A stretch of DNA of 64,000 nt from positions 15,700 to 79,699 of the forward strand of contig JAJYUJ010000006.1 in the NCBI GenBank assembly GCA_021792615.1, read 5' to 3'. Below the pieces are notes generated by a model. It was not told the DNA's origin, made no database searches, and worked only from the letters and a program-made list of their open reading frames with translations. Each line of letters starts with the position of its first letter. Position 1 is the first letter of the stretch. Below, piece by piece: positions 3,309 to 59,699 of this stretch. This stretch comes from a bacterium (GTDB lineage Bacteria > JAMCPX01). A program made the position numbers and the translations under genes.

Positions 3309-4891
3309 TCTTCGTCTTTCAGATCGATTTCGTACAGGTGAGCTTCGTCCGACATGACCTTTATTTCGTCATCGGTAAGCTTGCTGCTCGACATTATCTC
3401 GATTTTACTCTCGAGCCCCGTGTCTATATCGACCGCCGATACGTTTACTATCCCGTTATTGTCGATATCGAAGCTCACGTCTATTCTGGGCTCACCTTTT
3501 TTCGTCATTCGTATACCGGAGAGTATAAATTCCCCGAGCAGTTCGTTCTCCTCTGCCGATTGGTTTTCTCCCTGGAAAACCCTTATTCTGACAGCGGTCT
3601 GGTTATCGTAGGATGTTGTAAAGGTATGACTCTTTTTTACCGGGATGGTGGTATTCCGCTCTATTATCTTTGCGAATTCCCCGCCGTGCGTTTCAATGCC
3701 GAGAGACAGGGGCGTAACATCGAGAAGCAGCATATCGCTCGAACCTTCCGAAAGCGCTGCTCCGTCTATTGCCGCTCCTATGGCTACCACTTCGTCAGGA
3801 TTTACACCCTTATGTGATGCCTTTCCAAAAAATTTTTTTACCCTTTCGACGAGCAAGGGCATCCTGGTCTGTCCGCCGACGAGAATGATCTCATTGATAT
3901 CGGTCGATTTGATACCGGCATTCTTCAGTGCTTCCTGAACGATGTCTATGGTTTTGCTGATGAGGTCCTCGGATAATTGCTCGAGTTCGTTACGGGTAAT
4001 CCTCCGGGTATAGTGCCGCGGCCCTGTCTTATCATAAGCAATGAAAGGGAGATTGACCGTCGATTCCATGGCACCGGAAAGTTCTATCTTCGTTTTCTCC
4101 CCCGCCTCTTTTAACCGCTGCAGTGCCATTCTGTCCGAACCGAGGTCCGCACCAATGGTCTCTTTTATTTCCTTTATAAAAAGCTGGATAAGCCTGTTAT
4201 CGATGTCCTCACCTCCGAGGTACGTATCGCCGGCCGTCGATATAACTTCGAACACACCTTTATGAATTTCCAGTATCGAAACGTCGAATGTCCCTCCGCC
4301 GAAATCATAAACAAGCACCTTCTCGTTATCGACGTGTCTGTTCAATCCATACGCTATCGCAGCGGCCGTCGGTTCATTGATGATCCTCATGACATCGAGT
4401 CCTGCGATCTTCCCTGCGTCTTTCGTTGCCTGCCGCTGATTATCGTTAAAATAAGCAGGTACCGTTATAACCGCCTCCTTCACTTCTTCGGAGAGGTATT
4501 CCTCGGCCACTTTCTTCATCTCTATGAGAATCATGGCGGAGACTTCCGGAATGCTGTAGTCTTTACCGCTGATAGTGATCCGGACATCTTCGTTGGGTCC
4601 CTGGGTCAGCTTGTACGCTATATTTTTTTTGGCAACCTCGACCTCCTGAGAATCGAACCTCCTGCCGATGAGCCTCTTAAAGGCAAACACCGTGTTGTCC
4701 GGGTTGATAACGGCCTGACGTTTTGCCAGATTGCCGACGAGCTTTTTGTTATCCTTTGTTATCGCAAAATACGATGGTGTTATCCTGTAACCGGCCTTAT
4801 TTGGAACCACGATAGGTTGTTTGTTTGCCATGACTGCAACACATGAATTTGTCGTACCAAGATCTATTCCAATAACTTTACTCATAATCAA
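3305..4891 (-). CDS. Hsp70-family ATPase, short paralog (HscC-like: NBD + substrate-binding beta domain, truncated lid), not canonical DnaK
   Basis: 528 aa. It carries Hsp70 signatures IDLGTTNS, DFGGGTFDVS and VLVGGQTRMP, and the SBD beta segment LLDVTPLSLGIET. It is about 110 aa shorter than DnaK at the C-terminus. No grpE or dnaJ-type Zn-finger protein is adjacent; instead it is flanked by a J-domain/TPR protein and a TPR protein with 4-nt overlaps on both sides. Confidence 0.8.
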   Translation of the reverse strand: MIMSKVIGIDLGTTNSCVAVMANKQPIVVPNKAGYRITPSYFAITKDNKKLVGNLAKRQAVINPDNTVFAFKRLIGRRFDSQEVEVAKKNIAYKLTQGPNEDVRITISGKDYSIPEVSAMILIEMKKVAEEYLSEEVKEAVITVPAYFNDNQRQATKDAGKIAGLDVMRIINEPTAAAIAYGLNRHVDNEKVLVYDFGGGTFDVSILEIHKGVFEVISTAGDTYLGGEDIDNRLIQLFIKEIKETIGADLGSDRMALQRLKEAGEKTKIELSGAMESTVNLPFIAYDKTGPRHYTRRITRNELEQLSEDLISKTIDIVQEALKNAGIKSTDINEIILVGGQTRMPLLVERVKKFFGKASHKGVNPDEVVAIGAAIDGAALSEGSSDMLLLDVTPLSLGIETHGGEFAKIIERNTTIPVKKSHTFTTSYDNQTAVRIRVFQGENQSAEENELLGEFILSGIRMTKKGEPRIDVSFDIDNNGIVNVSAVDIDTGLESKIEIMSSSKLTDDEIKVMSDEAHLYEIDLKDEE

Positions 4892-6036
4892 TCCTCTATT
4901 AAAGATTTTATTTCTTGTATCATTGTCTCTGCATGAGAATCAGCAGGCTTTATGTTTTTAATAGTCTCATACACCTTTAAGGCGTTTCTGTATAGCTTAA
5001 ATTTCATATATATTTCTCCGAGCAGTTCGTATGCCCTTACATTGTTCGCATCGTATTCTATTGCCATCTGGGTATAATCCCTGGCATTCAGCAAGTCATT
5101 ATGTTTTAGATAATAATGTGCCATGAGTAAAGGTATTCTTGAGTCCCGGACATCCTTCAATGCAGCCATTTCACCCAGGACCTGCTGCAGCATATTTTTG
5201 TCCAGCCTTTCCTTCATAAGAGCAATCTTCTGTTCCAGTGCGGATTCAAGGGACCGGGGGTTCTCGATTTTTACCGTCTCCTCACTCTGCACGGATTGCA
5301 TGGGCTCGACAAAGGGCGGCTCTTGAAACTTTACCGTCTCTTCGGTATTTGCCGATTTTATCGTCTCTTCTCTCCTGACGGACTGAGCGGATGTGATACG
5401 CGGCGGTTTTTGATACTCTGCCGTCTCTTCGGTATTCACTGATTTTATCGTACGGGCACCTGTATTGTCCGGTGGTGCAGCCCTCTGCGTCCGGGATGCC
5501 GGTGTGTTTGCATTTACCAGTGCGGCATCATACCATTGTTTTTTCTGCGGATCGTAAAGAACTTCATACGCCTCCGAAAGCTTCTTAAAAATTGCGTTGA
5601 GTTTGACCTTATAATCGCCTATATTTTTTTTGAAATACCTGTCCGGATGGTAAATCTTCGATAGTTCAAAAAATTTTGCCTTCACCTGATCAGGCTTTAC
5701 CTGAAGAGGTACGGATAGTATCTGATAAAACGTTCCGTTTTTTACGGTATCGGTCATTTTTTCTATGGCGCTCTTTTCATCTTCACTCAGGTCAACATCG
5801 TTATTTTCTTTATTGCCCGCAGGTTCCAACCCGTCGATCAGAAAAACTTTTTTATTCCAGAGACCCTTGATAACTTCAAGCGCCTGGTCATAGGGCAACC
5901 CGCTCAGAGAGGCAAGGTCGTCAACGGAACTTACACCATCTACTCTCGACAGCAAATATCCCTCTATCGGCGTCAGCTTCAGAGTGTTGTATGATAGCGA
6001 AGAATTCAGTTTTGGCACCCCTTTTATAAATTCCAT
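4888..6036 (-). CDS. J-domain (DnaJ-like) co-chaperone with N-terminal shared domain, tandem 29-aa linker repeats and C-terminal TPR
   Basis: 382 aa. It has a J-domain with HPD motif (FYQILSVPLQVKPDQVKAKFFELSKIYHPDRY...YEVLYDPQKKQWYD) but no DnaJ Zn-finger or C-terminal domains. The linker carries two to three tandem ~29-aa units (IKSVNTEETAEYQKPPRITSAQSVRREET / IKSANTEETVKFQEPPFVEPMQSVQSEET), visible as ~90-bp DNA repeats at about 5270-5500. The C-terminal region is TPR-like. The N-terminal 60 aa share a domain with the 2718-3308 protein. Confidence 0.75.
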   Translation of the reverse strand: MEFIKGVPKLNSSLSYNTLKLTPIEGYLLSRVDGVSSVDDLASLSGLPYDQALEVIKGLWNKKVFLIDGLEPAGNKENNDVDLSEDEKSAIEKMTDTVKNGTFYQILSVPLQVKPDQVKAKFFELSKIYHPDRYFKKNIGDYKVKLNAIFKKLSEAYEVLYDPQKKQWYDAALVNANTPASRTQRAAPPDNTGARTIKSVNTEETAEYQKPPRITSAQSVRREETIKSANTEETVKFQEPPFVEPMQSVQSEETVKIENPRSLESALEQKIALMKERLDKNMLQQVLGEMAALKDVRDSRIPLLMAHYYLKHNDLLNARDYTQMAIEYDANNVRAYELLGEIYMKFKLYRNALKVYETIKNIKPADSHAETMIQEIKSLIED

Positions 6037-9632: not shown

Positions 9633-10133
9633 CTATTTGTTGTCTATAGAATTATGCTGGATTGACCGCTGCATTGCAACTTTTCCGGTCCTCACGATGT
9701 CCTTCACCCCGAGCGGTTTCAAAAGATTGAGAACTGCACCAATCTTCTCTTCATCGCCCGTGAGTTCTATAACAAAAGTATCGGGACTCACGTCGACGAT
9801 CTTGCCCCGGAATATATCAACCAGCCTCAGCACCTCTGTCCTGTTTTCACCGGAAGCCGATACCTTTATCAGCACCATCTCCCTTTCTACATGTCCGGTA
9901 ACCGTCAGATCGACGACCTTGATAGTATTGATAAGCTTGTTCAATTGCTTGATAATCTGCTCGATAATTTTATCTTCACCGTTGGTTACTATCGTCATCT
10001 TGGATACGGAAGGATCCAGCGTCTCTGCCACGCTCAAACTTTCTATGTTATAACCTCTGCCGCTGAACAATCCAGCAACCCTTGCAAGTACACCGAACTT
10101 ATTCTCGACGGTTAGCGATATCGTATGCCTCAT
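9633..10133 (-). CDS. ilvN: acetolactate synthase small (regulatory) subunit
   Basis: 166 aa with ACT domain ([33 protein letters not shown]), positioned directly downstream of the large subunit. Confidence 0.85.
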
Positions 10134-17220: not shown

Positions 17221-17297
17221 CTTTAATCTTGAATCTTTAATTTTTAATTTTTAATCTTTAATTTCTTATTTTGAATCTTTAATTTCTTATCTTTAAT
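17221..17297. repeat. degenerate heptanucleotide tandem array (CTTTAAT)x11
   Basis: The array reads ctttaat cttgaat ctttaat ttttaat ttttaat ctttaat ttcttat tttgaat ctttaat ttcttat ctttaat. It spans the last 6 codons of hemB (..ILKIRN*) and the whole hemB/radical-SAM intergenic region. Confidence 0.8.
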
Positions 17298-22862: not shown

Positions 22863-24000
22863 TGAAGATCCGCTTTACCGATTGTATCACCCTGATTACC
22901 TCGTGCTCTGTCATTCCCGACGCGAGCGGGAGCGAAAGTGTCTGACGTGAAATCCTCAGGGCGTTCGGGAAATCACCGGGCTTCAGATGATAGGTATCCC
23001 TGAAATAGGAATGGAGATGCAATGATACGAAATGAATCCCTGTGCCGATACCCGCGGCATTCAGCCGTTCCCTGGCCGTTTCCCTGTCCATGCCGGCCTT
23101 TTCCCGGTCCACGGCTATTGCGTACAGGTGCATCCCGTGGTTACCCTCGTTATACAGCGGCGGTAGTCCGATCGGGAGCTGCTGAAAATGTCTGTTGTAC
23201 CGGTCCCATATCCATTCTCTTCGCGCACGCTTCCGCGAATATTCTTTCATTTGTGAGAGCGCGATAGCCGAAAGCAGGTCCGGGATTTCAAAATTATAAC
23301 CAGGTACCAGCGTATCGTACGGCATTGAATGGCCCTTTTTCCCGAACCTCGACCATGCCGTCTTTGTTATACCGTATGACCTCAAAAGCCTGATCCTATC
23401 GGCAATCTTTTTATTGTTCGTCGTCACAACCCCACCTTCTGCAGCAGTAATATTTTTTGTGGCATACAAGCTGAAAACGGTCGTGTCACCGATATTCCCG
23501 ATGCTTTTGCCCCGGTAGGTTGCTCCAAACGCGTGGGCTGCATCCTCAATGACCATCAAGCCATGCTTGCGTGCCAGGCCAATGATAGCGCTCATGTCGC
23601 ACGGCCTTCCATGCAAATGGATGGGTAGTATGGCTTTTGTCTTTCGCGTTACAGCCCTTTCTATTTTTGCAGCATCCATATTGCCGGTACTGTCGACATC
23701 CACAAACCTCACCCGAGCACCTGTATGGATAACCTCGCTCGCCGTGGCGGGGAACGTCATCGGAGATGTGATGACTTCATCGCCCTTCCCGATGCCGGAT
23801 GCAAGCATGGATAAGAACAGACCGCCGGATCCGCTTGATACTGCTACCGCATACCGTGCTCCGGTAAACTTTATAAAGGCGCGCTCCAGCGCTTCCGTCA
23901 CCGCCCCCATGCCTATCCATCCGCTCCTGAGTACATCGACCGCGGATTGTATGTCCTCTTTCTTTATGTCAGGCTTTCCAAAAATAACCTTATTCCCCAT
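22855..24000 (-). CDS. DegT/DnrJ/EryC1/StrS-family PLP-dependent sugar aminotransferase (ArnB/PglE-like)
   Basis: 381 aa with conserved blocks GDEVITSPMTF, IEDAAHAFGATYRGK and SLYATKNITAAEGG (PLP-binding Lys in the S-x-x-x-K context). Confidence 0.85.
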   Translation of the reverse strand: MGNKVIFGKPDIKKEDIQSAVDVLRSGWIGMGAVTEALERAFIKFTGARYAVAVSSGSGGLFLSMLASGIGKGDEVITSPMTFPATASEVIHTGARVRFVDVDSTGNMDAAKIERAVTRKTKAILPIHLHGRPCDMSAIIGLARKHGLMVIEDAAHAFGATYRGKSIGNIGDTTVFSLYATKNITAAEGGVVTTNNKKIADRIRLLRSYGITKTAWSRFGKKGHSMPYDTLVPGYNFEIPDLLSAIALSQMKEYSRKRARREWIWDRYNRHFQQLPIGLPPLYNEGNHGMHLYAIAVDREKAGMDRETARERLNAAGIGTGIHFVSLHLHSYFRDTYHLKPGDFPNALRISRQTLSLPLASGMTEHEVIRVIQSVKRIFNG

Positions 24001-25717
24001 GTATTTTCCCCGTCAGTTCCTGTATTTTAAAATTCAATCCCCTGTCATTATACGAAGGGTGCGGCTCTTTCAGCGCCATGGCATAAGCCTCCGCTGCATG
24101 CCGGTAATCATGCATCTTTTCGTACAATCCGGCAATAATGATGTAATCCGACGACCTGAAAGAGTTCAGATCAACTTTCACAGCCTTTTGATAAAGCGCT
24201 ATGGCCTTTTCATATTCACCCTCATTGGCGTACACATTGCCGAGTTCCTTGAGTGCAGGCGTATAATCCGGCGCTCTCTCCAGCACGAACGTGGTGTACT
24301 CCTTGTCCTTTGCATAATTCCCCTCTTCACCGTATGCATTGCCCAGCATGGCATACCCCCACAATGATTTATCGACACCCGGCATGTAAGGCCTTGTCTG
24401 GATCTGCCGCGTCCACAGGGTAACACCGTTCTGCCAGGTCAGATCCAGCATAAAGCTGATGGTTCCGTATGACAGTATAACAAGGAACGCGACCGGCATA
24501 AAGAATTTTTTGAACGCGGCTGTATCCCGTGTTGCCGTGATGATTATCCGCGCAAACATCAATCCGAACCCTGCAAGTGATAGGTAGGCAAAGCGGTCGG
24601 CGATCTTGATCTGCAAGCCTACGACATTGGATGCAGGCACCATATTCAACAGGATCCATGCAAATCCGAAAAACAATGCCTTGTCTTTCCGAATGAATTT
24701 TATGCATGCGTACAGCAGCAGGATAACAAACGGAACGGAAAGGACAAACAAGGGTTCGAGCATACTCCGGTTTGCGGGCTCTATGTACAGTGCCGCATTG
24801 TTGAACGGAAATAAAAAGTGGACCGTATATATGACGAACAGCTCCGGCATAAACATCAGCAGCCAATCCCTGCTATAGACAGTTTGGAGCGTACTGGTAC
24901 CGAAGTAACTCGTCGAATAGCTGTAGAGGTTAATGGTATACAGGGCCATAATGACAACGGGAACGATAAGATATGCCGCGTATTTCTTAAAACTCCTCTC
25001 GTCCTCGATGATAAACATGTATGCCGCAAGTACACCCGGAAAAGGAAGGGCTGACGCCTTTGAAAGCAGCGCTGCAAGAAACAGAACGGATGACAGAACG
25101 AGATATTTCCCCGGAGACGGCCCCCGCTGCCCCGTACCCGCGGACTGCATGCCCCGTGTCCTGCCCGTACTATGCCTGTAAAAATCCACAAAAAAGATAA
25201 AAGCAAGCAGGTAAAAGGTCATTGCCATAAGGTCTTTCCTGCTCGACACCCACGACACAACACCTGCGGTTAACGGATGGAGTGCAAAGATCAGCGCAGA
25301 CAAGAAGGCAAGAGGGGTATCATCAAAAAGTTTCAGGAAGAGCACGAAGACGAGGATGGCATTCGCTGACTCGTATAAGAGATTGCTCAGATGATAGACG
25401 AACGGATGTAAACCTCCGATGGCGTAATCGATCATGTAACTCAGATCGCGCACCGGATAATACTCGGTAAACTTATCGGTATAAACACTATGCGGATCGA
25501 ATATATGCATAATGCTTCTGATAGAAAGATGCATGATCCTCGGGTTGTTGGCGATCATCATTTCATCGTCCCAGTTGACAAAACCGTCACGCAGGGAAAT
25601 ACCGTGTACCGCAACAACGGTCAGAACAAGCAGGACAATAAACCATATCTGTTTTTTGTCAGCGTTATTGTTCATAAGATGTTCCCTACTATATCCTGCC
25701 TGACCCGGAAAATGCAA
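23990..25717 (-). CDS. GT-C-fold membrane glycosyltransferase of the TMTC/PMT_2-like family with C-terminal TPR repeats
   Basis: 575 aa. The N-terminal half is polytopic with the TMTC/PMT-like signature YYPVRDLSYMIDYAIGGLHPFVYHLSNLLYESANAILVF. The C-terminal ~150 aa are TPR (AMLGNAYGEEGNYAKDKEY..., ALKELGNVYANEGEYEKAIALYQKAVKV). Confidence 0.65.
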   Translation of the reverse strand: MHFPGQAGYSREHLMNNNADKKQIWFIVLLVLTVVAVHGISLRDGFVNWDDEMMIANNPRIMHLSIRSIMHIFDPHSVYTDKFTEYYPVRDLSYMIDYAIGGLHPFVYHLSNLLYESANAILVFVLFLKLFDDTPLAFLSALIFALHPLTAGVVSWVSSRKDLMAMTFYLLAFIFFVDFYRHSTGRTRGMQSAGTGQRGPSPGKYLVLSSVLFLAALLSKASALPFPGVLAAYMFIIEDERSFKKYAAYLIVPVVIMALYTINLYSYSTSYFGTSTLQTVYSRDWLLMFMPELFVIYTVHFLFPFNNAALYIEPANRSMLEPLFVLSVPFVILLLYACIKFIRKDKALFFGFAWILLNMVPASNVVGLQIKIADRFAYLSLAGFGLMFARIIITATRDTAAFKKFFMPVAFLVILSYGTISFMLDLTWQNGVTLWTRQIQTRPYMPGVDKSLWGYAMLGNAYGEEGNYAKDKEYTTFVLERAPDYTPALKELGNVYANEGEYEKAIALYQKAVKVDLNSFRSSDYIIIAGLYEKMHDYRHAAEAYAMALKEPHPSYNDRGLNFKIQELTGKIHGE

Positions 25718-25796
25718 TAAGGAAGTCTGTTCATTCCTCAGGACAAAGAGTTTGAAACGATGCGAAGGAAAATACCGGGAAAATTCCCGGATAGCA

Positions 25797-50225: not shown

Positions 50226-50437
50226 ATCCTCTCGTAAATATTTTATTCTTGTATGCATATATTTAGTAAAATTATACCGTAATCATTAAATTTTCAATAA
50301 AATAAGATTAATTTTTTTTAATTTTCCCCTTTTCCCGCTCTGATCCTTTATCCATTTCCCATCACTACTTCCCCCTGCTCTCCTTGTTCCTTGATTATAT
50401 CTGGAATTGTGCTATTGAAGGAAAGCTATATCAGTGC

Positions 50438-53086
50438 ATGAAGGAGGCACAATACGTGAGATGTTTTAAATGTCTTACAGAAGTACCGACAGGAACAGAA
50501 GTCTGTCCGAATTGCGGTCAAGTTCTTATACCAAAGGCAGCAAAGAAGAACAAAGAGACAAAAGACCCTGCCGGTACCCAGATTAAACAAAAAGAGTATC
50601 AGATAGGCGACACGATAAAGGACCGCTATGAGGTCAGGGGGGAACTGGGCAAAAAAGGTACGGGATTCACGTATAAGGTTCGGGATAAAGAAAAGAAAAA
50701 GACCTTCGTGCTCAAACAGATACATTCTTCACTGATAACTTCGGATGAATCAAAGGCGCGTTTTTTTGATATTATAAAAGAAGTAATCAAGATGAACCTG
50801 CATGAGGTCGTCTCAATCCATGATTACGGGGAAGACAATGGAGCAATCTATTTTGTTTCCGAATACATAGAAGGACTCACGCTGAGAAAGCTGCTGGACG
50901 TCAGAAAAGAGATGAAACAGTTTTTCAAAGGCGAAGAACTCGAATCCATACTCACGCAGATATGCAAGGCACTTATTACAGCCCATAATCACGGGGTTAT
51001 ACACGGAGATCTGAAACCCGAGAATATATTCATATTGCCCAGCGGTCTTAAGATTACGGAATTCGGTATAACCGGCTCTTTCTCACCGCTCGATTTTACA
51101 TCGATCCAGCAGGACATGGGTGACGCTTACAAGTATATAGCACCCGAAATCGTTATCGGCGGTAACCTGTCAAAATCAAGCGATATCTATTCACTCGGCG
51201 CTATAGTTTATGAGATGCTTACCGGTGTAATACCCGGAAGTGTCGTAAATCCGCTGAACACTTACAACAGTGAACTTCCTCCGGCTGCTAACGATATCGT
51301 CCTCAAAGCACTACGTCAGGATCCTGAACAGAGAACTCAATACGTATTTGAATTTTACAAAAATTTACTCGAAAGTCTCGATCAAAAAGCAGGTATTTTC
51401 GAAGAAAAGCCGTGGATAACGAAACAAACGGCAGAAACAGAACAGACCGGAAAACTACAAACTGAGGTAGACGAAGAACTACTCATGTACGTGGAGACCG
51501 GCAGGACAGCCCCGGCACCTGCATCTGACAAACAAGGACCTGTTTCAAAAGAAGAGAAACCTGCACCACCGGCACCGGAAAAAAATGAAGTACCGCAACC
51601 TGAACCGCCAAAACCGTCAACCTCCGCACAACCGGAGCAGGAACAACAACCGGAAAAAGAAAAATCAGCGGAAGAAATCAAAGAATCAACCCGGGAACCG
51701 GGTCCGCAGGCCGCAGAAGCAACAAAACAGATTCCTCCTGCTGAACATCAACACGGTAATGAGGAACGTGTCATCGCAAAACCCGCAGAGCAACCCGTAA
51801 AAGAAGAAATTTCGGGAGAAAAGATAGAAGCAGAAAAAATACAACCCGCGCCTGAACCTGCTGTCACAGAGCAGCCAAAACAAGAAATGTCAAAACAACA
51901 GGAAGAAATCTCCAGGACAATTCCGGAGGTAATTCCGGAAAAGATTGAACAAACAAAGCCTGAACCGGAACAAACCGGGATAGATGATATTGCCAAACAT
52001 CTGGGGATAATCACCGAAGAGCTCCAGGGCACAAAACCAATTAAACCAAAACCAGCGGGACCTGTTCAGGAAAAGCCTCCTGTTTCTCAAAGTCAGGTTG
52101 ACAAGTCTGCTCCTCAGAGGGTCGAACCTGCTCCGGCCAGGCAGATACCGCCAAAATCAGCACCGGTGGCAGCTACCTTGGAGACGAAGAAAAAACCGGC
52201 AGTACTGTTGATTGCAGGTACCATCGTACTCGCTGCCGCGGCATTAATAGTTACCGGATGGTTTTTGTTAAAATCTCCTTCAAAAGAGGTTTCCGGTGTT
52301 ACACCTCCAAAAACGAATAAAGCAATCGAGACGAATACGAAACCAGTCACGGCTGCAGAACATGCGGTTACCGGAACTGTGGTACAAGCCAAACCTCCTG
52401 TCGAAAGGCAGGAAGTGAAAAAACAGGAGATAAAAAAACCGGTTGAACGGCCGCGCCGGGAAAAAAAGATTGCAGCGGCACCAAAACCATTACCCCCGAA
52501 ATGTCCTGCCGATATGGCATATATACCCTCGGGCAGCTTCATCATGGGTAGCAGCCCTTCGGACCCGCTGAGGGACTTTTCCGAAAAACCTGACGTACGG
52601 ACATACGTCCGGTCATTCTGCATCGATAAATACGAGTATCCTGACCAGGAAGGCGTTATTCCGCAAACGAATGTAAGCTTCTATAAGGCAGAAAGGTTGT
52701 GCAGGGCTGAAGGCAAACAATTGTGTTCAGAGGATGAGTGGGAAAAGGCATGCAAAGGTCCCTCTTCATTAAAGTATCCTTACGGTAATGTATGGAATTC
52801 CGCGAAATGTGACACGCAGAACAAGGATGGAACAAACAGATCCATAGTGCCGTCAGGCACCTACAGAGCATGCGTAAGCGGCTATGGAGTATATGATATG
52901 AGCGGAAATGTGATGGAATGGACCGACAACATTTTTTCGCCACAGGATACAACTGATAAGGTCGTCAAAGGCGGATCTTTCACGAAACCCGATTGGGCAA
53001 CACGATGCGCATACCGGTACAATATGCTTCCGACCTCAACGAGCAATGAGGTTGGCTTCAGATGCTGCAAACCGCCGGAAAGATAA
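50438..53086 (+). CDS. multidomain membrane protein: Zn-ribbon + Ser/Thr-kinase-like domain (atypical HGD/EFG motifs) + P/E/K-rich linker + TM helix + extracytoplasmic FGE-sulfatase (SUMF1-like) domain
   Basis: The Zn-ribbon is CFKC...CPNC. The kinase subdomains are present (GELGKKGTG, VLK, HGDLKPEN, ITEFG, APE) but with R->G in HRD and D->E in DFG. A ~300-aa low-complexity linker (PEPPKPSTSAQPEQEQQPEKEK...) follows, then a TM helix (VLLIAGTIVLAAAALIVTGWFLL). The C-terminal FGE domain has GNVMEWT and the paired Cys signature TRCAYRY...GFRCC. The start is either ATG 50438 or GTG 50456 after AAGGAGG. Confidence 0.8.
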   Translation: MKEAQYVRCFKCLTEVPTGTEVCPNCGQVLIPKAAKKNKETKDPAGTQIKQKEYQIGDTIKDRYEVRGELGKKGTGFTYKVRDKEKKKTFVLKQIHSSLITSDESKARFFDIIKEVIKMNLHEVVSIHDYGEDNGAIYFVSEYIEGLTLRKLLDVRKEMKQFFKGEELESILTQICKALITAHNHGVIHGDLKPENIFILPSGLKITEFGITGSFSPLDFTSIQQDMGDAYKYIAPEIVIGGNLSKSSDIYSLGAIVYEMLTGVIPGSVVNPLNTYNSELPPAANDIVLKALRQDPEQRTQYVFEFYKNLLESLDQKAGIFEEKPWITKQTAETEQTGKLQTEVDEELLMYVETGRTAPAPASDKQGPVSKEEKPAPPAPEKNEVPQPEPPKPSTSAQPEQEQQPEKEKSAEEIKESTREPGPQAAEATKQIPPAEHQHGNEERVIAKPAEQPVKEEISGEKIEAEKIQPAPEPAVTEQPKQEMSKQQEEISRTIPEVIPEKIEQTKPEPEQTGIDDIAKHLGIITEELQGTKPIKPKPAGPVQEKPPVSQSQVDKSAPQRVEPAPARQIPPKSAPVAATLETKKKPAVLLIAGTIVLAAAALIVTGWFLLKSPSKEVSGVTPPKTNKAIETNTKPVTAAEHAVTGTVVQAKPPVERQEVKKQEIKKPVERPRREKKIAAAPKPLPPKCPADMAYIPSGSFIMGSSPSDPLRDFSEKPDVRTYVRSFCIDKYEYPDQEGVIPQTNVSFYKAERLCRAEGKQLCSEDEWEKACKGPSSLKYPYGNVWNSAKCDTQNKDGTNRSIVPSGTYRACVSGYGVYDMSGNVMEWTDNIFSPQDTTDKVVKGGSFTKPDWATRCAYRYNMLPTSTSNEVGFRCCKPPER

Positions 53087-54352: not shown

Positions 54353-54423
54353 CTCCCCGTTCCTGCTTCCCCCAATAAGATTCTTCAATTCCCCTTTACC
54401 TAGAGTGGCGAGAATTGTATTCC

Positions 54424-54500
54424 GTCATTGCGATGCGTCATCGGTGCAGAAGCAATCTCTCCCTTCCCTGTCATTCCCGTAAAAACGGGAATCCAGTTCC
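54424..54500. repeat. composite hairpin repeat copy E (GTCATTGCGA...GAAGCAATCTC + GTCATTCCCGTAAAAACGGGAATCCAGTTCC)
   Basis: It joins both repeat sub-families and has a perfect stem CCCGT/ACGGG. It generates the spurious ORF 54400-54612 (..IPVFTGMTGKGE..). Confidence 0.75.
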
Positions 54501-54633
54501 AACCCAGTTCTTTCTTATTCTCTATGCTCAATCTTTGAAAGCCTTGTTTCGTGATCATCAAGCTTAGCGGAGGGTTTTTTATCCCCGATTCATTCTCTTG
54601 CCTTTTCCGCATGCATCATGCTATCTGCAAATC

Positions 54634-55959
54634 ATGCGTTCCAATGCCCTTGTATACGTAATCTCCATCTTAATGGCTCTCTTCATCGGCTGGTCAATGT
54701 TCAACCCCCATTTCAGCGGTTCGATGGAATACCTGCTCATGGTTGTATTCTTCGTCATGCTCGCATGGATTATCCTTGTAATCTTCGTCCCTGACCGCAG
54801 GGAAAGAAACTATATTTTCTCCATATTCCTATTGGCTCTTTTTCTAAGAATACTCGTCTCTTTTCTTATTCATACCTTACTTCCGCTTGGCTATTTTGCA
54901 CCGGATGAGCCGGGTACGATCTTGAACGGAAGAATAACTGCAGAATATTGGAGAGGATCTACCACAATACAGGGCGTAAAAGGGAGTGTATTTGATATTG
55001 CCGGAATCGTTTTTTATATCTTCGGTTACAACCCAAATATCTTATTTTTACTTGCGAACTTCCTCGGTGCAATGACAGTTCTGAATGCCTATTTTATAAC
55101 AAAGCGCCTGTTCAATGAGCAGTCAGCACGTTATAGTGCATTGGCAGTAACCATTTTGCCATCACTTATACTCTGGTCTTCCATGCCTTTAAAGGATGTA
55201 TACTCACAGTTCTTAATTACATCCATCATGCACATGACTTTAAGAGTCAAAGAACGCTTCAGACTCAATAATGTTGCAATTATTATAGCCTTGATAGCAT
55301 TGATTGGGTTTGTACGGGCATATCTTATGTTCATCGTCTTAGTTGCTATTGCAGGGACATTTATCCCTGTACGCAAAGAAACCTTTTTAAGGAATACAAT
55401 TATTATTACTATTTTTGCTATGGCATTTGTTGTGTTTTTTTCATCATACTCGTCAAAACAAGCCTCTCTCTTTGGGAATACCCCGGAAACCACATTCCAA
55501 ACACTGCAACAAACCAGACAAGGCTTTTATTCGGGTGGATCTAAAATGCTCGGACATATCAATGTTGCAAGCCCTGTCAATGCTTTATTGTATTTACCTC
55601 TCCTTTTAGCTGCTTTTTTTCTTGCTCCCTTCCCATGGGACGTAACCGGAAGTATATTGCATAACCTTGCAACTGCAGAAAGCATCGTATGGTATTATCT
55701 TTTCTATTACGCAATAAAGGCCATTATTCGATCATTTAAAGAAGGCAATTTCGATACATTGCCTGTGCTCGTCATGGTTGGCGTTTTATCTATTGCTTAT
55801 GCGCTTGCAATCAGTAATATGGGCGCGGCGTATCGTTTCCGTGGACAGGTTTCTGTCCTGCTGCTGGTCTTCACAGGCTATGGACTTTATTTAAGGAAGC
55901 AGAAACACCTAATAAAACATGCCCTGCCTGATGAACCAAACTCCCCTTCTTCCCCCTGA
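54634..55959 (+). CDS. polytopic membrane protein, putative GT-C-type glycosyltransferase or glycan polymerase (family unassigned), tandem paralog 1
   Basis: About 441 aa with ~11 TM helices and an acidic periplasmic-loop motif YFAPDEPGT after TM3. It is a paralog of the next gene. The start is taken at MRSNALV. Confidence 0.55.
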   Translation: MRSNALVYVISILMALFIGWSMFNPHFSGSMEYLLMVVFFVMLAWIILVIFVPDRRERNYIFSIFLLALFLRILVSFLIHTLLPLGYFAPDEPGTILNGRITAEYWRGSTTIQGVKGSVFDIAGIVFYIFGYNPNILFLLANFLGAMTVLNAYFITKRLFNEQSARYSALAVTILPSLILWSSMPLKDVYSQFLITSIMHMTLRVKERFRLNNVAIIIALIALIGFVRAYLMFIVLVAIAGTFIPVRKETFLRNTIIITIFAMAFVVFFSSYSSKQASLFGNTPETTFQTLQQTRQGFYSGGSKMLGHINVASPVNALLYLPLLLAAFFLAPFPWDVTGSILHNLATAESIVWYYLFYYAIKAIIRSFKEGNFDTLPVLVMVGVLSIAYALAISNMGAAYRFRGQVSVLLLVFTGYGLYLRKQKHLIKHALPDEPNSPSSP

Positions 55960-56135
55960 TATGGGGGATTTAAGGGGGTTGAGAGCCCGGACTGAAGAGT
56001 CACCACTGTTCTGTCATTATGATGCTCAGTCAAAGAATCTGCCTTTTCTCTCCGGAATTATAATCTCCGGCGACATTCCTCGCTCCTCCATTCCTTCTTC
56101 TTGCCTTTTCTGCAAGCAACATGCTATCTGAAAAC

Positions 56136-57482
56136 ATGCGTTCGAACCTCGTTATAAACATAATCTTTATTACAAGTGCCATGGTACTTGGATGGTTTCT
56201 GTTCAATCCGAGTTACAGCGATCCTATAGAATACCTTCTTATGCTTGTATTTTTTGTATTGATTGCATGGATTATATTGGTAACTTTTGTCCCTGATCAA
56301 AAAGAACGGGGCTACCTTATATCTATTTTCTTAATTGCGCTGGCATTAAGGATGCTTGTATCCCTGCTTGTCCATGCACTGCTTCCCCCGGGCTATTTTG
56401 CACCGGATGAACCCGGCACACTCATGAATGGAAGGATGATTGCTGAATCATGGTCAGGCAATGCCATGCCGTATAACTTTCATGGAGGTATATATGCTAT
56501 TGCCGGGGCTGTGTTTTATATCTTCGGCTATAAACCAAATATCTTATTTTTACTTGCGAACTTCCTCGGTGCATTGACTGTCTTAAATGCCTATTTTATA
56601 ACAAAGCGCCTGTTCAATGCGCAGTCGGCACGCTACACCGCTATGGTTGTAACCATATTACCGTCGCTTATTTTATGGTCGTCCATGCCATTAAAAGACA
56701 TTTATTCGCAGTTTGCTATTACATCCATCATACACCTGACTCTGAGGATTAAGGAGCACTTCAGAATAAGCAATCTTATGCTTATTTTATTCTTGATTGC
56801 ATTTGTTGGATTCATTAGAGAATATCTTGTGATTATCGTTTTAATGGCTATTGCAGCTACCTTTATTCCTGTACGCAAAGAAACCTTTATCCGGAATGCA
56901 ATTGTTATAGCGGTTTTTGCCTTGTCATTTGCATTGTTCTTTTCATCGTATGAGGCGAAACAGGTGCCCAATCATGGAGAAAAATCAGGAGGTACATTTC
57001 AGACACTGCAACAAACCAGACAGGGGTTTTATCAGGGGGGCTCAAAGATACTTGGACACATAAATATATCCAATCCAATCAATGCACTTCTGTATTCGCC
57101 TTTGCTCTTAGCAGTTTTTTTTCTTGCGCCCTTCCCGTGGCAGATCTCGGGCAGTATATTGCATAACCTCGCAACAGCAGAAAGTCTCGTATGGTATTAT
57201 TTTTTTTATTACGCAATAAAAGCTATTATACGATCATTTAAAGAAGGAAAATTTGACGTGATGCCTGTGCTGGTTATGATCGGAGTATTATCAGTTGCTT
57301 ACGCACTTGCAATATCGAATATCGGTGCGGCATACCGTTTCAGGGCACAGGTTTCAGTGCTTTTTTTGGTCTTTACAGGCTATGGACTTTATTTAAGGAA
57401 GCAGGAACATCTAATAAAATATGCCCTGCCTGATGGACCAAAAGTTTCTTCCGCTTATCCGACAACCCCAAATAAGATGTAA
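56136..57482 (+). CDS. polytopic membrane protein, tandem paralog 2 of 54634-55959
   Basis: About 70% identical to paralog 1 over its full length (YFAPDEPGTLMNGR, FLLANFLGA.TVLNAYFITKRLFN.QSARY..., NLATAES.VWYY.FYYAIKAIIRSFKEG.FD). Confidence 0.55.
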   Translation: MRSNLVINIIFITSAMVLGWFLFNPSYSDPIEYLLMLVFFVLIAWIILVTFVPDQKERGYLISIFLIALALRMLVSLLVHALLPPGYFAPDEPGTLMNGRMIAESWSGNAMPYNFHGGIYAIAGAVFYIFGYKPNILFLLANFLGALTVLNAYFITKRLFNAQSARYTAMVVTILPSLILWSSMPLKDIYSQFAITSIIHLTLRIKEHFRISNLMLILFLIAFVGFIREYLVIIVLMAIAATFIPVRKETFIRNAIVIAVFALSFALFFSSYEAKQVPNHGEKSGGTFQTLQQTRQGFYQGGSKILGHINISNPINALLYSPLLLAVFFLAPFPWQISGSILHNLATAESLVWYYFFYYAIKAIIRSFKEGKFDVMPVLVMIGVLSVAYALAISNIGAAYRFRAQVSVLFLVFTGYGLYLRKQEHLIKYALPDGPKVSSAYPTTPNKM

Positions 57483-57670
57483 TACCCCAAGTGAATATCC
57501 AAAATCTACTGAACCATCATCCAATGGTATGTGATCAACACTTGCCCGATGGAATACACAATTATTAACCCGAAAAATGCGTCTGAAAAATAAGGAAGTT
57601 TATGCAATGAGCGATAAGCCCGCGTCAAACAAAGGTATGCTTCGAAAATCCGATAAGGAAACCATACCGG

Positions 57671-58181
57671 GTAATAGCATATAAACCCCGTTAGAAATGT
57701 TAGAATAATACAGATATTTTAATGAACGGGTGTTCGCCGCAATCCACGCTATTTATAGCGTGGTAAAGGCGAACTATTCGATTGATATATTCCATACCGA
57801 CGAAGAATTCATGCCGTTTACGGCGTGGTTCTTCAATTTTAAATCTATTGTTGTACAAATTATCGTCTGCTGAGTTTCTAACGGGGTAAACATACAGAGG
57901 ACTAAAAGCTCGTTCCTATAAGGAAACTTATAGATATCAGGTGGATCGCGGGATTGAGCGAATAAGGAAACTTCCTTATTGCATTTTTCAGGTTAAACAA
58001 TTTTAGATTTCCCCGCGCTACATTTAATGCTTCTTCACTGGGATCTATACAGTACAAAGTTCCAATGCGGGGAGCTACAAACTTTGCCTACCTAACCGTT
58101 TGAAAATAATGGTGTTTTTGAAATCACCATCATCGCAAGTCTTTATAGTACTTTGTTCTCTAACGGGGTTTACAGAATACC
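57671..58181. repeat. ORF-free hairpin-rich segment bounded by inverted copies of a TCTAACGGGGTTT motif (MITE-like or structured-RNA locus)
   Basis: The motif copies are at 57671-57697 (inverted), 57875-57897 and 58156-58181. Internal perfect hairpins include GTTCGCC..CCACGCTAT-TT-ATAGCGTGG..GGCGAAC (about 57725-57775), GCCGTTTACGGC and AATAAGGAAACTTCCTTATT. No ORF of at least 60 aa lies on either strand. Confidence 0.45.
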
Positions 58182-58190
58182 GCCTCTCTA

Positions 58191-59699
58191 TTACTTAAAA
58201 GAAACCTGATAAGCTAAGCCTATTTTTCGAATATCAAAAGTTTTCTGCAGATCAGGAATAAAATAGTATTGAGCATTATTATCGGCAAGAAACACTGTCC
58301 TTTTGTCCTTCAACTCTGCTGAAATATAACGAGTTAGAGCACTACCGCCATCCTTGCCCATAAAAACATATTGATCCTCATCCACGATAGTTACATCTTT
58401 TCTTAAGCCGTAAGCATTCTGATAATACCGTAAAACCTCTTCCGGGGTAAAATCCGAGATTAAAATCGCATTTTCTGGCAATGCTGCAAATATTTCGTTT
58501 GAATATTTCATAGGACCATAATTTCTATTTTTGTTTGGAACAAGGAAATATTCAACATTATTCCTAAAAGGCAGTGTCCGTGCATGAACAACCATCATCT
58601 TAGGATGACTCAATAAATATGCTGAAACGGTATTATAAAAAGCTATTGGAGTAACAAATAATAGGACCAACAATAAAACAGAGACAGTATTAGTTTTGGT
58701 AAATGAAAAATGTTTATTTAACCATTTTATCCCGTATCCAATAATAATAGAAAAAATCATAAAACTTGGAACCAAAAGGTTAAAAGCACGCTGTAGCATA
58801 TAAACGGATGCGAAGAAAACATCTAAAATAAATACTATAGCTAATGAGTAAAAGAATATTTTTTCTGTTTTAAGACTTTCGTATATTCCCATAACACCTA
58901 TTATGAGACCCCATACAGGGAATTGATAGAACAGGTAAGCCGGATATAAGATTAGTTGTTTAACAAAATGCTGAAATGACATAAAATAGGCTTTTATGCC
59001 CAAATTTATTTCCAAAATTATACTTTCAAATGGATGAGTATTGAATACATGTGATGCTGCATATATTTTTAACAACGAAAGAGGCAAAACAAAACCAAAA
59101 AGAATTCCAATAAATATTGCAGCTATTTTTCTATTGTTCAATATGATCTTTTTATCTATTGATAAAAAGAAATATAAATATGCCGGTAAAAATACCACTA
59201 ATAACATGTTTGCAAAAACACTGAGAGCGTACGACAGCGTAAATAAAAACAGATATAGCGGTTTATGATTCTCCTTATATTTGATCATGATGAAAAGTAA
59301 TATTGCAAAAAAGAAATAGGTTAAAGAATAACTTTCATTTACGACAGACATAAACCAAAACATTTGTGATACAGCAAGTGAAATTACAGCCGCTAATGCG
59401 GCAATCTTAGAACCTAATATCTTCTCGCTATCAAGGTAGAATATACCAAGAGTTAAAGACCCCCAAAATGCTGACATGAGATTTTGCTTATAAGCAATAT
59501 CCCTAATCGGCAATAGATTAAAAAGTAATCCAAGCAGTGTATGAAGGTTGTGTCCACCAACAAAATCGAAAGTGAATTTTTTATTTATAACATAATTTAC
59601 AAGCTTAGCACTATCTCCCCATGTTATGCCCGGAGATAATGTGTATAAATAAAGGCCAAAGCTGAAAATTGTTACCAATATCCAGAAATATTTACGCAT
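58191..59699 (-). CDS. DUF2723/TMEM260-like GT-C-fold protein (putative protein O-glycosyl/mannosyltransferase family)
   Basis: The start is taken at MRKYFWILV (59699), which makes a TAATG overlap with the upstream GT4 stop. The N-terminal signature YLYTLSPGITWGDSAKL fits DUF2723. There are ~10 TM helices and a soluble C-terminal domain. Confidence 0.55.
   Translation of the reverse strand: MRKYFWILVTIFSFGLYLYTLSPGITWGDSAKLVNYVINKKFTFDFVGGHNLHTLLGLLFNLLPIRDIAYKQNLMSAFWGSLTLGIFYLDSEKILGSKIAALAAVISLAVSQMFWFMSVVNESYSLTYFFFAILLFIMIKYKENHKPLYLFLFTLSYALSVFANMLLVVFLPAYLYFFLSIDKKIILNNRKIAAIFIGILFGFVLPLSLLKIYAASHVFNTHPFESIILEINLGIKAYFMSFQHFVKQLILYPAYLFYQFPVWGLIIGVMGIYESLKTEKIFFYSLAIVFILDVFFASVYMLQRAFNLLVPSFMIFSIIIGYGIKWLNKHFSFTKTNTVSVLLLVLLFVTPIAFYNTVSAYLLSHPKMMVVHARTLPFRNNVEYFLVPNKNRNYGPMKYSNEIFAALPENAILISDFTPEEVLRYYQNAYGLRKDVTIVDEDQYVFMGKDGGSALTRYISAELKDKRTVFLADNNAQYYFIPDLQKTFDIRKIGLAYQVSFK

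Follow-up and report, generated by a model that had tools for sequence, protein, structure and literature searches.

Positions 57483-58190 of the window, i.e., the whole 64-kb stretch of DNA that was analysed, consist of two MITEs nested in a methyltransferase remnant. Read as a whole, the segment is very probably a wrecked methyltransferase gene that was split by a non-coding MITE carrying a second MITE, with the nesting coming first and the deletions after. This accounts for an odd non-coding gap between two glycan genes: a transposon disrupted the gene of a glycan-modifying methyltransferase, which decayed afterwards. The region is mobile-DNA debris that is ordinary in kind, and since MITEs in decayed genes are common, the finding is unsurprising in this respect; both MITE families, however, seem to be undescribed so far. 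The features are collected in Table 1.

Table 1. Positions of the features discussed in the text (window coordinates).
Feature	Position	Strand	Basis or remarks
Solo E1-type end of the outer family (CCCGGAAAATGCAATAAGGAAGTCTGTTCATTC)	25704..25740	+	No partner end, no TTAA flank
Left flanking PMT_2-type membrane glycosyltransferase, 453 aa	56121..57482	+	Pfam PF13231
Methyltransferase pseudogene, distal piece	57477..57568	-	About residues 121-149 of the L003 protein; tblastn and blastn
Left TTAA duplication copy of the outer MITE	57565..57568		Sequence; single TTAA in L003
Outer MITE, composite, 424 bp	57569..57992	+	Inverted repeats; ends E2 = CCCGAAAAATGCGTCTGAAAAATAAGGAAGTTT... and E1 = ...AAACTTCCTTATTGCATTTTTCAGG, paired, with TTAA on both sides
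Cut-down 25-codon frame (MSDKPASNKGMLRKSDKETIPGNSI, then stop)	57607..57684	+	Frameshifted version of the family's 50-codon frame
Left TAAA duplication copy of the inner MITE	57682..57685		Sequence; single TAAA where the inner MITE is absent
Inner MITE, 201 bp	57686..57886	+	Perfect 12-nt TIRs, CCCCGTTAGAAA (57686-57697) and TTTCTAACGGGG (57875-57886), which are motif copies 1 and 2 of the first-pass annotation
Hairpin core, 120 bp	57716..57835	+	Absent from the otherwise collinear L059 copy
Right TAAA duplication copy of the inner MITE	57887..57890		Sequence
Right TTAA duplication copy of the outer MITE	57993..57996		Sequence
Methyltransferase pseudogene, proximal piece	57997..58094	-	About residues 87-120 of the L003 protein; in-frame stop
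Unassigned 96 bp	58095..58190		Hairpin ATGGTG...CACCAT and third motif copy
Right flanking TMEM260-like/PMT_2 membrane glycosyltransferase, 522 aa	58191..59759	-	Pfam PF11028, PF13231

An interrupted methyltransferase gene in a variable glycan locus

The segment was placed by the first-pass annotation between two membrane-protein genes of a glycan locus, and Pfam bears this out, both being PMT_2/TMEM260-like membrane glycosyltransferases. Their genes are convergent, with further glycosyl- and methyltransferases downstream, and the locus is a variable glycan locus. The left neighbour is the second of two tandem PMT_2 paralogues (54598-55959 and 56121-57482; 72% aa identity, P0016), of which the related locus L003 has one. 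Its exact protein is found on contig DAHVIG010000001.1 of GCA_027322025.1, and an exact-peptide scan of genome contigs with the flanking protein gave no relative. Over the upstream 7.9 kb, up to the M48 peptidase gene, L003 and the window share 94.8% identity; synteny stops right after this gene, at ~54363, from where the window has a different minus-strand gene set. The G+C content is 28-32% at 58400-59400, within the TMEM260-like gene, versus 40-50% upstream, a drop that suggests horizontal acquisition of the minus-strand glycan genes.

Other features of the locus were recorded alongside. Further upstream, 50384-53086 encodes a 900-aa fusion of a Ser/Thr protein kinase and an FGE-sulfatase domain that is conserved in the syntenic loci L003, L004 and L006. 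Other small palindromic repeats (GTCATTCCCG...CGGGAATCC and GTCATTGCGAGG...CGAAGCAATCC) lie at 54395-54490 of the window and at L003 9340-9400, L004 5165-5215 and 6300-6350, and L142 1860-1960, and one such repeat is found inside a 308-bp variant of the outer MITE. Additionally, an A+T-rich tandem repeat of the TTTAATCTTTAATTTTTAAT type occurs in intergenic regions of both the window (17222-17297) and L004 (1047-1098, 5234-5282 and 6155-6241).

Within the segment itself, the longest overlapping frames in the ORF list for both strands are 52, 51, 47 and 40 aa, in agreement with the earlier statement that no ORF of at least 60 aa is present. The intact counterpart is provided by L003, an ENA contig in which a 302-aa SAM-methyltransferase gene lies on the minus strand, next after the PMT_2 gene. 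By tblastn, residues 114-149 of this protein match window positions 57584..57477 (56% identity, E = 4e-9) and residues 87-120 match 58093..57992 (76% over 34 aa, E = 1e-10). Correspondingly, blastn aligns window 57472-57568 with L003 9971-10067 (75%) and window 58017-58094 with L003 10088-10165 (88% over 78 nt). In L003 the two remnant pieces are direct neighbours that flank a single TTAA (10064-10067): base by base, L003 reads ...caattaTTAAtatttttt... at this point, whereas the window reads ...caattaTTAA-CCCGAAAAATGC...GCATTTTTCAGG-TTAAacaatttt.... Therefore, the 424 bp at 57569-57992 are an insertion into the methyltransferase gene, accompanied by duplication of TTAA. A comparison of this junction in a relative, proposed by the first-pass annotation, thus yields an empty site, the intact L003 gene with its single TTAA. 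All sequences compared, the window included, come from metagenome assemblies, in which repeats can lead to misjoins; despite this origin, both insertion flanks match one contiguous L003 gene.

The gene was damaged beyond the insertion. On the left side, the equivalent of L003 9294-9970, comprising the C-terminal half plus the spacer, is deleted in the window; on the right side, homology to the L003 methyltransferase gene ends at 58094, and the sequence at 58095-58190 resembles the N-terminal part of the L003 methyltransferase at neither the protein nor the DNA level. The surviving part covers about residues 87-149 of 302, is interrupted by the insertion and bears an in-frame stop; it does not amount to a functional methyltransferase. 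A GT2-methyltransferase gene occupies the same position in L005 and was rejected as a homologue of the window remnant. The knockout sits where synteny with a 95%-identical relative fails; therefore, mobile elements reshape this surface-glycan locus.

Two nested elements and their families

The three motif copies reported by the first-pass annotation are real. The 64-kb window contains exactly three occurrences of the 11-mer TCTAACGGGGT, at 57685-57695 (-), 57877-57887 (+) and 58159-58169 (+); at up to one mismatch 0.64 occurrences per window are expected, and the three observed all lie within 500 bp, while at two mismatches the extra matches elsewhere in the window are at chance level only. 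The motif had been given a length of 13-26 nt, but the stretch common to all three copies is 11 nt and never 26 nt. Copies 1 and 2 form a perfect inverted repeat of 13 nt and copies 1 and 3 share 14-15 nt; the 13-mer TCTAACGGGGTTT is found in just two of the three, the middle one reading TCTAACGGGGTAA. The repeated TCTAACGGGG motif is the end of the inner element.

The pairing of these ends differs from the one first proposed, in which copies 1 and 3 were TIRs bracketing ~510 bp. Copies 1 and 3 are inverted, have 14-15 nt in common and can pair in a 33-nt arm with 73% complementarity; past the first 14 nt, however, the arms match only at the chance level for A+T-rich DNA. Moreover, the resulting span of ~483 bp would run over the right end of the 424-bp insertion and its TTAA, and would include 98 bp derived from the methyltransferase, which in L003 continue without a break into the left flank. 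Copies 1 and 2, by comparison, bracket 201 bp, have matching TAAA flanks and recur as a pair in L059 and L143, with an empty site in L111. It is thus extremely unlikely that copies 1 and 3 are the ends of one element, and copies 1 and 2 are the true partners. The insertion itself at 57569-57992 has other inverted repeats (beginning CCCGAAAAATGC), which had been missed. The earlier label of a MITE-like element is accordingly right in kind, given the TIRs, the 4-bp target-site duplications, the many copies in related genomes and the empty sites, but not in anatomy.

The inner family comprises four complete copies and one solo end with the 12-nt ends in ~0.85 Mb of related loci. Besides the window copy, L059 has a 78-bp copy that occupies the same position within an outer copy and has the same subterminal sequence, L143 has a 92-bp copy (3339-3430), again at the same site in an outer copy, with a different interior, and L004 has a 100-bp standalone copy (5004-5103) after the M48 gene. 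The flanks are TAAA/TAAA in the window, L059 and L004, and TAAA/TGAA in L143. Empty sites are available for both settings. L111 and ~20 other outer copies read GCATATAAACATACAG, with a single TAAA, where the inner element would lie, and the standalone copy has a paralogous empty site 1.1 kb away, at L004 6231-6234, whose right flank is 87% identical over 159 nt, beginning exactly at the single TAAA. In searches of viral contigs, a single 16-mer of the inner end gave 49 matches, all of them single chance matches, and unpaired short patterns were therefore left out of scans of larger collections.

The composite in L059 is 94% identical to that of the window and lies at a different locus, with TTAA and TTAT as flanks. 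Therefore, the composite moved as a unit by its outer ends, and the nesting predates the methyltransferase insertion. Removing the inner element and one TAAA from the outer MITE leaves 219 bp that are 94% identical to a 218-bp element at L111 5490-5707, a locus of MAG WY2.bin9, and this 219-bp version aligns end to end with the family. The outer ends pair over ~35 nt with an 11-nt indel.

The outer family was found with the pattern CCNGRAAAATGCAATARGRAAGT, scanning one genome per species. Among the matches listed, more than 112 stretches were obtained in seven other MAGs, labelled "bacterium", "Deltaproteobacteria bacterium" or "uncultured Pseudomonadota bacterium", with sizes of 93-268 bp, and TTAA flanks 95 of 123 ends (77%). 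The further copies that the first-pass annotation had proposed to search for are thus found in abundance for the outer family (more than 112 stretches, among the matches listed), and elsewhere for the inner family as well. Complete copies among the matches listed number 37 (93-424 bp) and have the same asymmetric ends, E1 = CCCGAAAAATGCAATAGGRAAGTTTG and E2 = CCCGAAAAATGCGTTTGCGAAATAGGGAAGTTTG; their sizes cluster at 93-94, 217-218, 238-240 and 250-261 bp. Identical 4-nt flanks are found in 28 of the 37 (23 TTAA, three TTGA, one TATA and one ATAA), and identical flanks of at least 5 nt in none. Therefore, the duplication is exactly 4 bp and not a TA of the IS630 type. With lengths of 93-424 bp and a longest frame of 57 codons, these elements have no transposase coding capacity. 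Members of both families have inserted, by cutting or copying, at TTAA-like sites and duplicated 4 bp in doing so; this happened repeatedly, in several species. A match in a Thermoplasmatales MAG (L167) was set aside as a chance match, with no TTAA flank and an unrelated interior, and plasmid and phage collections gave no match.

In MAG KM4348-15, the repeat lies at the edge of dozens of contigs, which begin or break off 50-70 nt into it with its end facing outwards; this is the signature of a high-copy repeat breaking the assembly. The 218-bp MITE is abundant enough in this MAG (L058-L169, JBMFUY01) to be a main cause of its fragmentation. Since the outer family fragments the assembly of at least one MAG, its sequence should aid in assembling and annotating this lineage. 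Other arrangements include back-to-back outer MITEs with one common TTAA (L156 1-200; L104 4165-4169; L137 1061-1065) and further size variants of about 116 bp with a GGGGCTTAAAATTTTAAGCCCC hairpin. The window also holds a solo outer-family end at 25704, of which 18 nt are identical to 57970-57987, and another such end is found in L002. This end lies just upstream of, or overlaps, the start of the minus-strand gene 23990-25717, and on the minus strand it contains TTGCAT-18 nt-TATAGT, a possible promoter.

The third motif copy belongs to neither element. It is a solo right end of the inner type (reverse complement of CCCCGTTAGAGAA, 58156-58168) followed by TTTA at 58169-58172, and in the simplest reading it represents a further inner-type element that was mostly lost in the deletion that took the 5' part of the methyltransferase gene. 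The decay of the gene had also been considered by the first-pass annotation as a possible source of the motif. The region does contain a decayed coding sequence, but the parts of it with protein homology include none of the three motif copies.

Taken together, the following course of events is proposed. A SAM-dependent methyltransferase gene originally occupied the minus strand between the two glycosyltransferase genes. A 201-bp (or originally 78-bp) element with CCCCGTTAGAAA ends entered the TAAA of a 218-bp MITE with CCCGAAAAATGC ends, and the composite then transposed as a single unit. One copy reached the methyltransferase gene at a TTAA, duplicating it, and subsequent deletions took the C-terminal half and the N-terminal third of the gene, with the solo end of another inner-type element remaining next to the remnant.

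RNA and peptide readings of the region

The hairpin density noted by the first-pass annotation is a property of the sequence on both strands. The 708 nt fold much more stably than shuffled sequences on either strand (z = -4.84 and -4.90), and the nested hairpin GTTCGCC/GGCGAAC is present at 57732-57774, enclosing CCACGCTAT/ATAGCGTGG at 57744-57763, together with several others. The core of the inner element is bounded by direct repeats ATTTTAA (57716-57722 and 57836-57842) and contains the nested hairpin (hairpin 1) and a related hairpin 2 (57802-57834); the two form a direct repeat whose units have diverged, including two compensatory pairs. Searches of the window and of 0.85 Mb of related loci, by degenerate pattern and by blastn, found no other copy of the core, and four matches of an exact 20-mer in JGI metagenomes were all unrelated palindromes. 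The core may represent a third insertion, again at a TTAA, or else ancestral sequence that the L059 copy lost by repeat slippage.

Such folding could be taken to indicate a large structured non-coding RNA, or several small RNAs, in which the motif copies are helix strands, copy 1 pairing with copy 2 or 3. Besides the very stable fold, this reading has in its favour that two compensatory pairs distinguish hairpin 1 from hairpin 2, along with two U-G wobbles able to pair on the plus strand only, and that compensatory changes affect nine of 54 predicted pairs in the outer-family alignment. The covarying pairs, however, sit in the TIRs, i.e., the terminal stem, where transposition requires matching ends, and the consensus fold of the outer family is one long terminal stem. 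Furthermore, the minus strand folds equally well, and the hairpin core is, in the sequences searched, found in the window copy only. The Rfam scan that had been suggested gave no family: no match at the gathering threshold of Rfam 15 in the 64-kb window and, at E up to 10 in 57000-58700, best scores of 12-18 bits against thresholds of 50-117. With target-site duplications, empty sites and more than 100 copies at unrelated loci, the region behaves as transposed DNA, and the structured-RNA half of the first-pass label is not supported; an RNA locus of this kind is very unlikely. In the transposon account, the hairpin density would be the plain palindromic build of MITEs. CRISPR, retron, riboswitch and attenuator readings were likewise rejected for 57483-58190, as was a tRNA-derived attachment site, no tRNA being present in the 64-kb window.

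A second alternative concerns the interior of the outer element, which could be a tiny protein-coding mobile element with a conserved ~50-aa peptide, frameshifted and dead in the window copy. A 50-codon frame preceded by the ribosome-binding-like GGGAAG/AAGGAAG is open in seven of the 218-bp copies, and a 57-codon frame is open in four of the 239-bp copies, whose extra module of 21 nt keeps it in frame. The stop codon is kept as a stop (TAA or TGA), and NCBI annotates the frames as hypothetical proteins (e.g., ACP5JP_06590). In terms of position, the frame spans most of the MITE (e.g., L088 4905-5122, L061 770-986 and L162 3715-3932). The substitution pattern speaks against a functional peptide: variable sites number 14, 29 and 26 by codon position, so that position 2 varies like position 3, and non-synonymous codon differences exceed synonymous ones 3-5 fold, without purifying selection. 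The frame is also disrupted in the subfamily of the window copy and among the 240-261-bp variants, and the 50-aa product has no Pfam domain and in a profile search gave only hypothetical proteins of 49-95 aa. To our knowledge, 50 aa is far below the size of any transposase. A peptide-coding element is therefore very unlikely, and the frame is taken to be either fortuitous or left over from the parent element.

Putative mobilising enzyme and comparison with known elements

We know of no parent IS for these MITE families. No transposase partner with these ends was found in the 0.85 Mb of related loci, the protein database, plasmids or phages; the ORFs inside 20 unpaired ends are ordinary genes and none is a transposase, and no long repeat is common to the related loci. 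The enzyme expected to move both elements, acting in trans, would be a DDE-type transposase that recognises the CCC-ended inverted repeats and cuts TTAA-like sites with a 4-bp stagger.

Several known groups come close to this profile. MITEs derived from IS630/Tc1-mariner duplicate TA, and IS5/IS701-type elements use 4-bp YTAR targets; the elements described here resemble both in their A+T-rich palindromic target centred on TA and in their short inverted repeats. Nevertheless, an IS630/Tc1-mariner origin with a 2-bp TA duplication is ruled out by the direct repeats TTGA/TTGA (three copies), TATA/TATA and ATAA/ATAA, and IS5-type ends begin with GG or GA, not CCC. REP/REPIN sequences, i.e., RAYT-mobilised short palindromes without a target-site duplication, are at odds with the clear 4-bp duplication and the long asymmetric ends.

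A closer match is offered by the IS1380/piggyBac group. Members of the IS1380 family carry CC ends, duplicate 4-5 bp and are not known to be strict about TTAA. ISEcp1, which belongs to this family, has the ends CCTAGATT... and ...AATTTAGG, i.e., CC...GG; the inverted repeats of both MITE families have no sequence similarity to ISEcp1, and tblastn with the ISEcp1 transposase gave no match in the window or in the 0.85 Mb of loci. Neither these loci nor the surroundings of any copy yielded an IS1380-like or piggyBac-like transposase. The eukaryotic piggyBac superfamily is characterised by a 4-bp TTAA duplication, with occasional TAAA-type variants, and by CCC ends (PMC10813416), and IS1380 is its prokaryotic relative, used as the outgroup in the same study (PMC10813416). 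The elements studied here are like piggyBac in that the ends CCCGAAAAATGC and CCCCGTTAGAAA begin with CCC, the duplication is 4 bp and TTAA is found at 95 of 123 outer-family ends. By this analogy, the mobilising enzyme is likely to be of the IS1380/piggyBac type, which should be taken as a lead. It is possible, if rather doubtful, that both families, with the complete piggyBac signature of a 4-bp duplication, a strong preference for TTAA and CCC...GGG termini, are the footprint of an unrecognised bacterial transposase with piggyBac-like TTAA specificity, either IS1380-related or of a new lineage, that has been highly active in an uncultured lineage (more than 100 copies in one MAG) and mobilises composites with a MITE at a fixed TAAA hotspot inside another. 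The combination of TTAA targets and CCC ends offers a concrete starting point in the search for a bacterial transposase that chooses its targets as piggyBac does.

With regard to MITEs themselves, Correia elements duplicate TA. Bacterial MITEs include the Correia/NEMIS elements of Neisseria and MITEAba12 of Acinetobacter (PMC6382973), and surveys are available (PMC3184786, PMC11602168). The elements described here share with them a small size (93-424 bp here), the lack of a transposase gene, TIRs, a short target-site duplication of fixed length and tens to hundreds of copies, as well as the long hairpin fold, insertion in or beside genes and the breaking of short-read assemblies. Unlike bacterial MITEs such as Correia, they show a 4-bp duplication with a strong preference for TTAA, and their ends are asymmetric, E2 having an extra 11 nt. 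They also differ from known bacterial MITEs in that one family is nested at a fixed site inside the other, in a composite that is still mobile.
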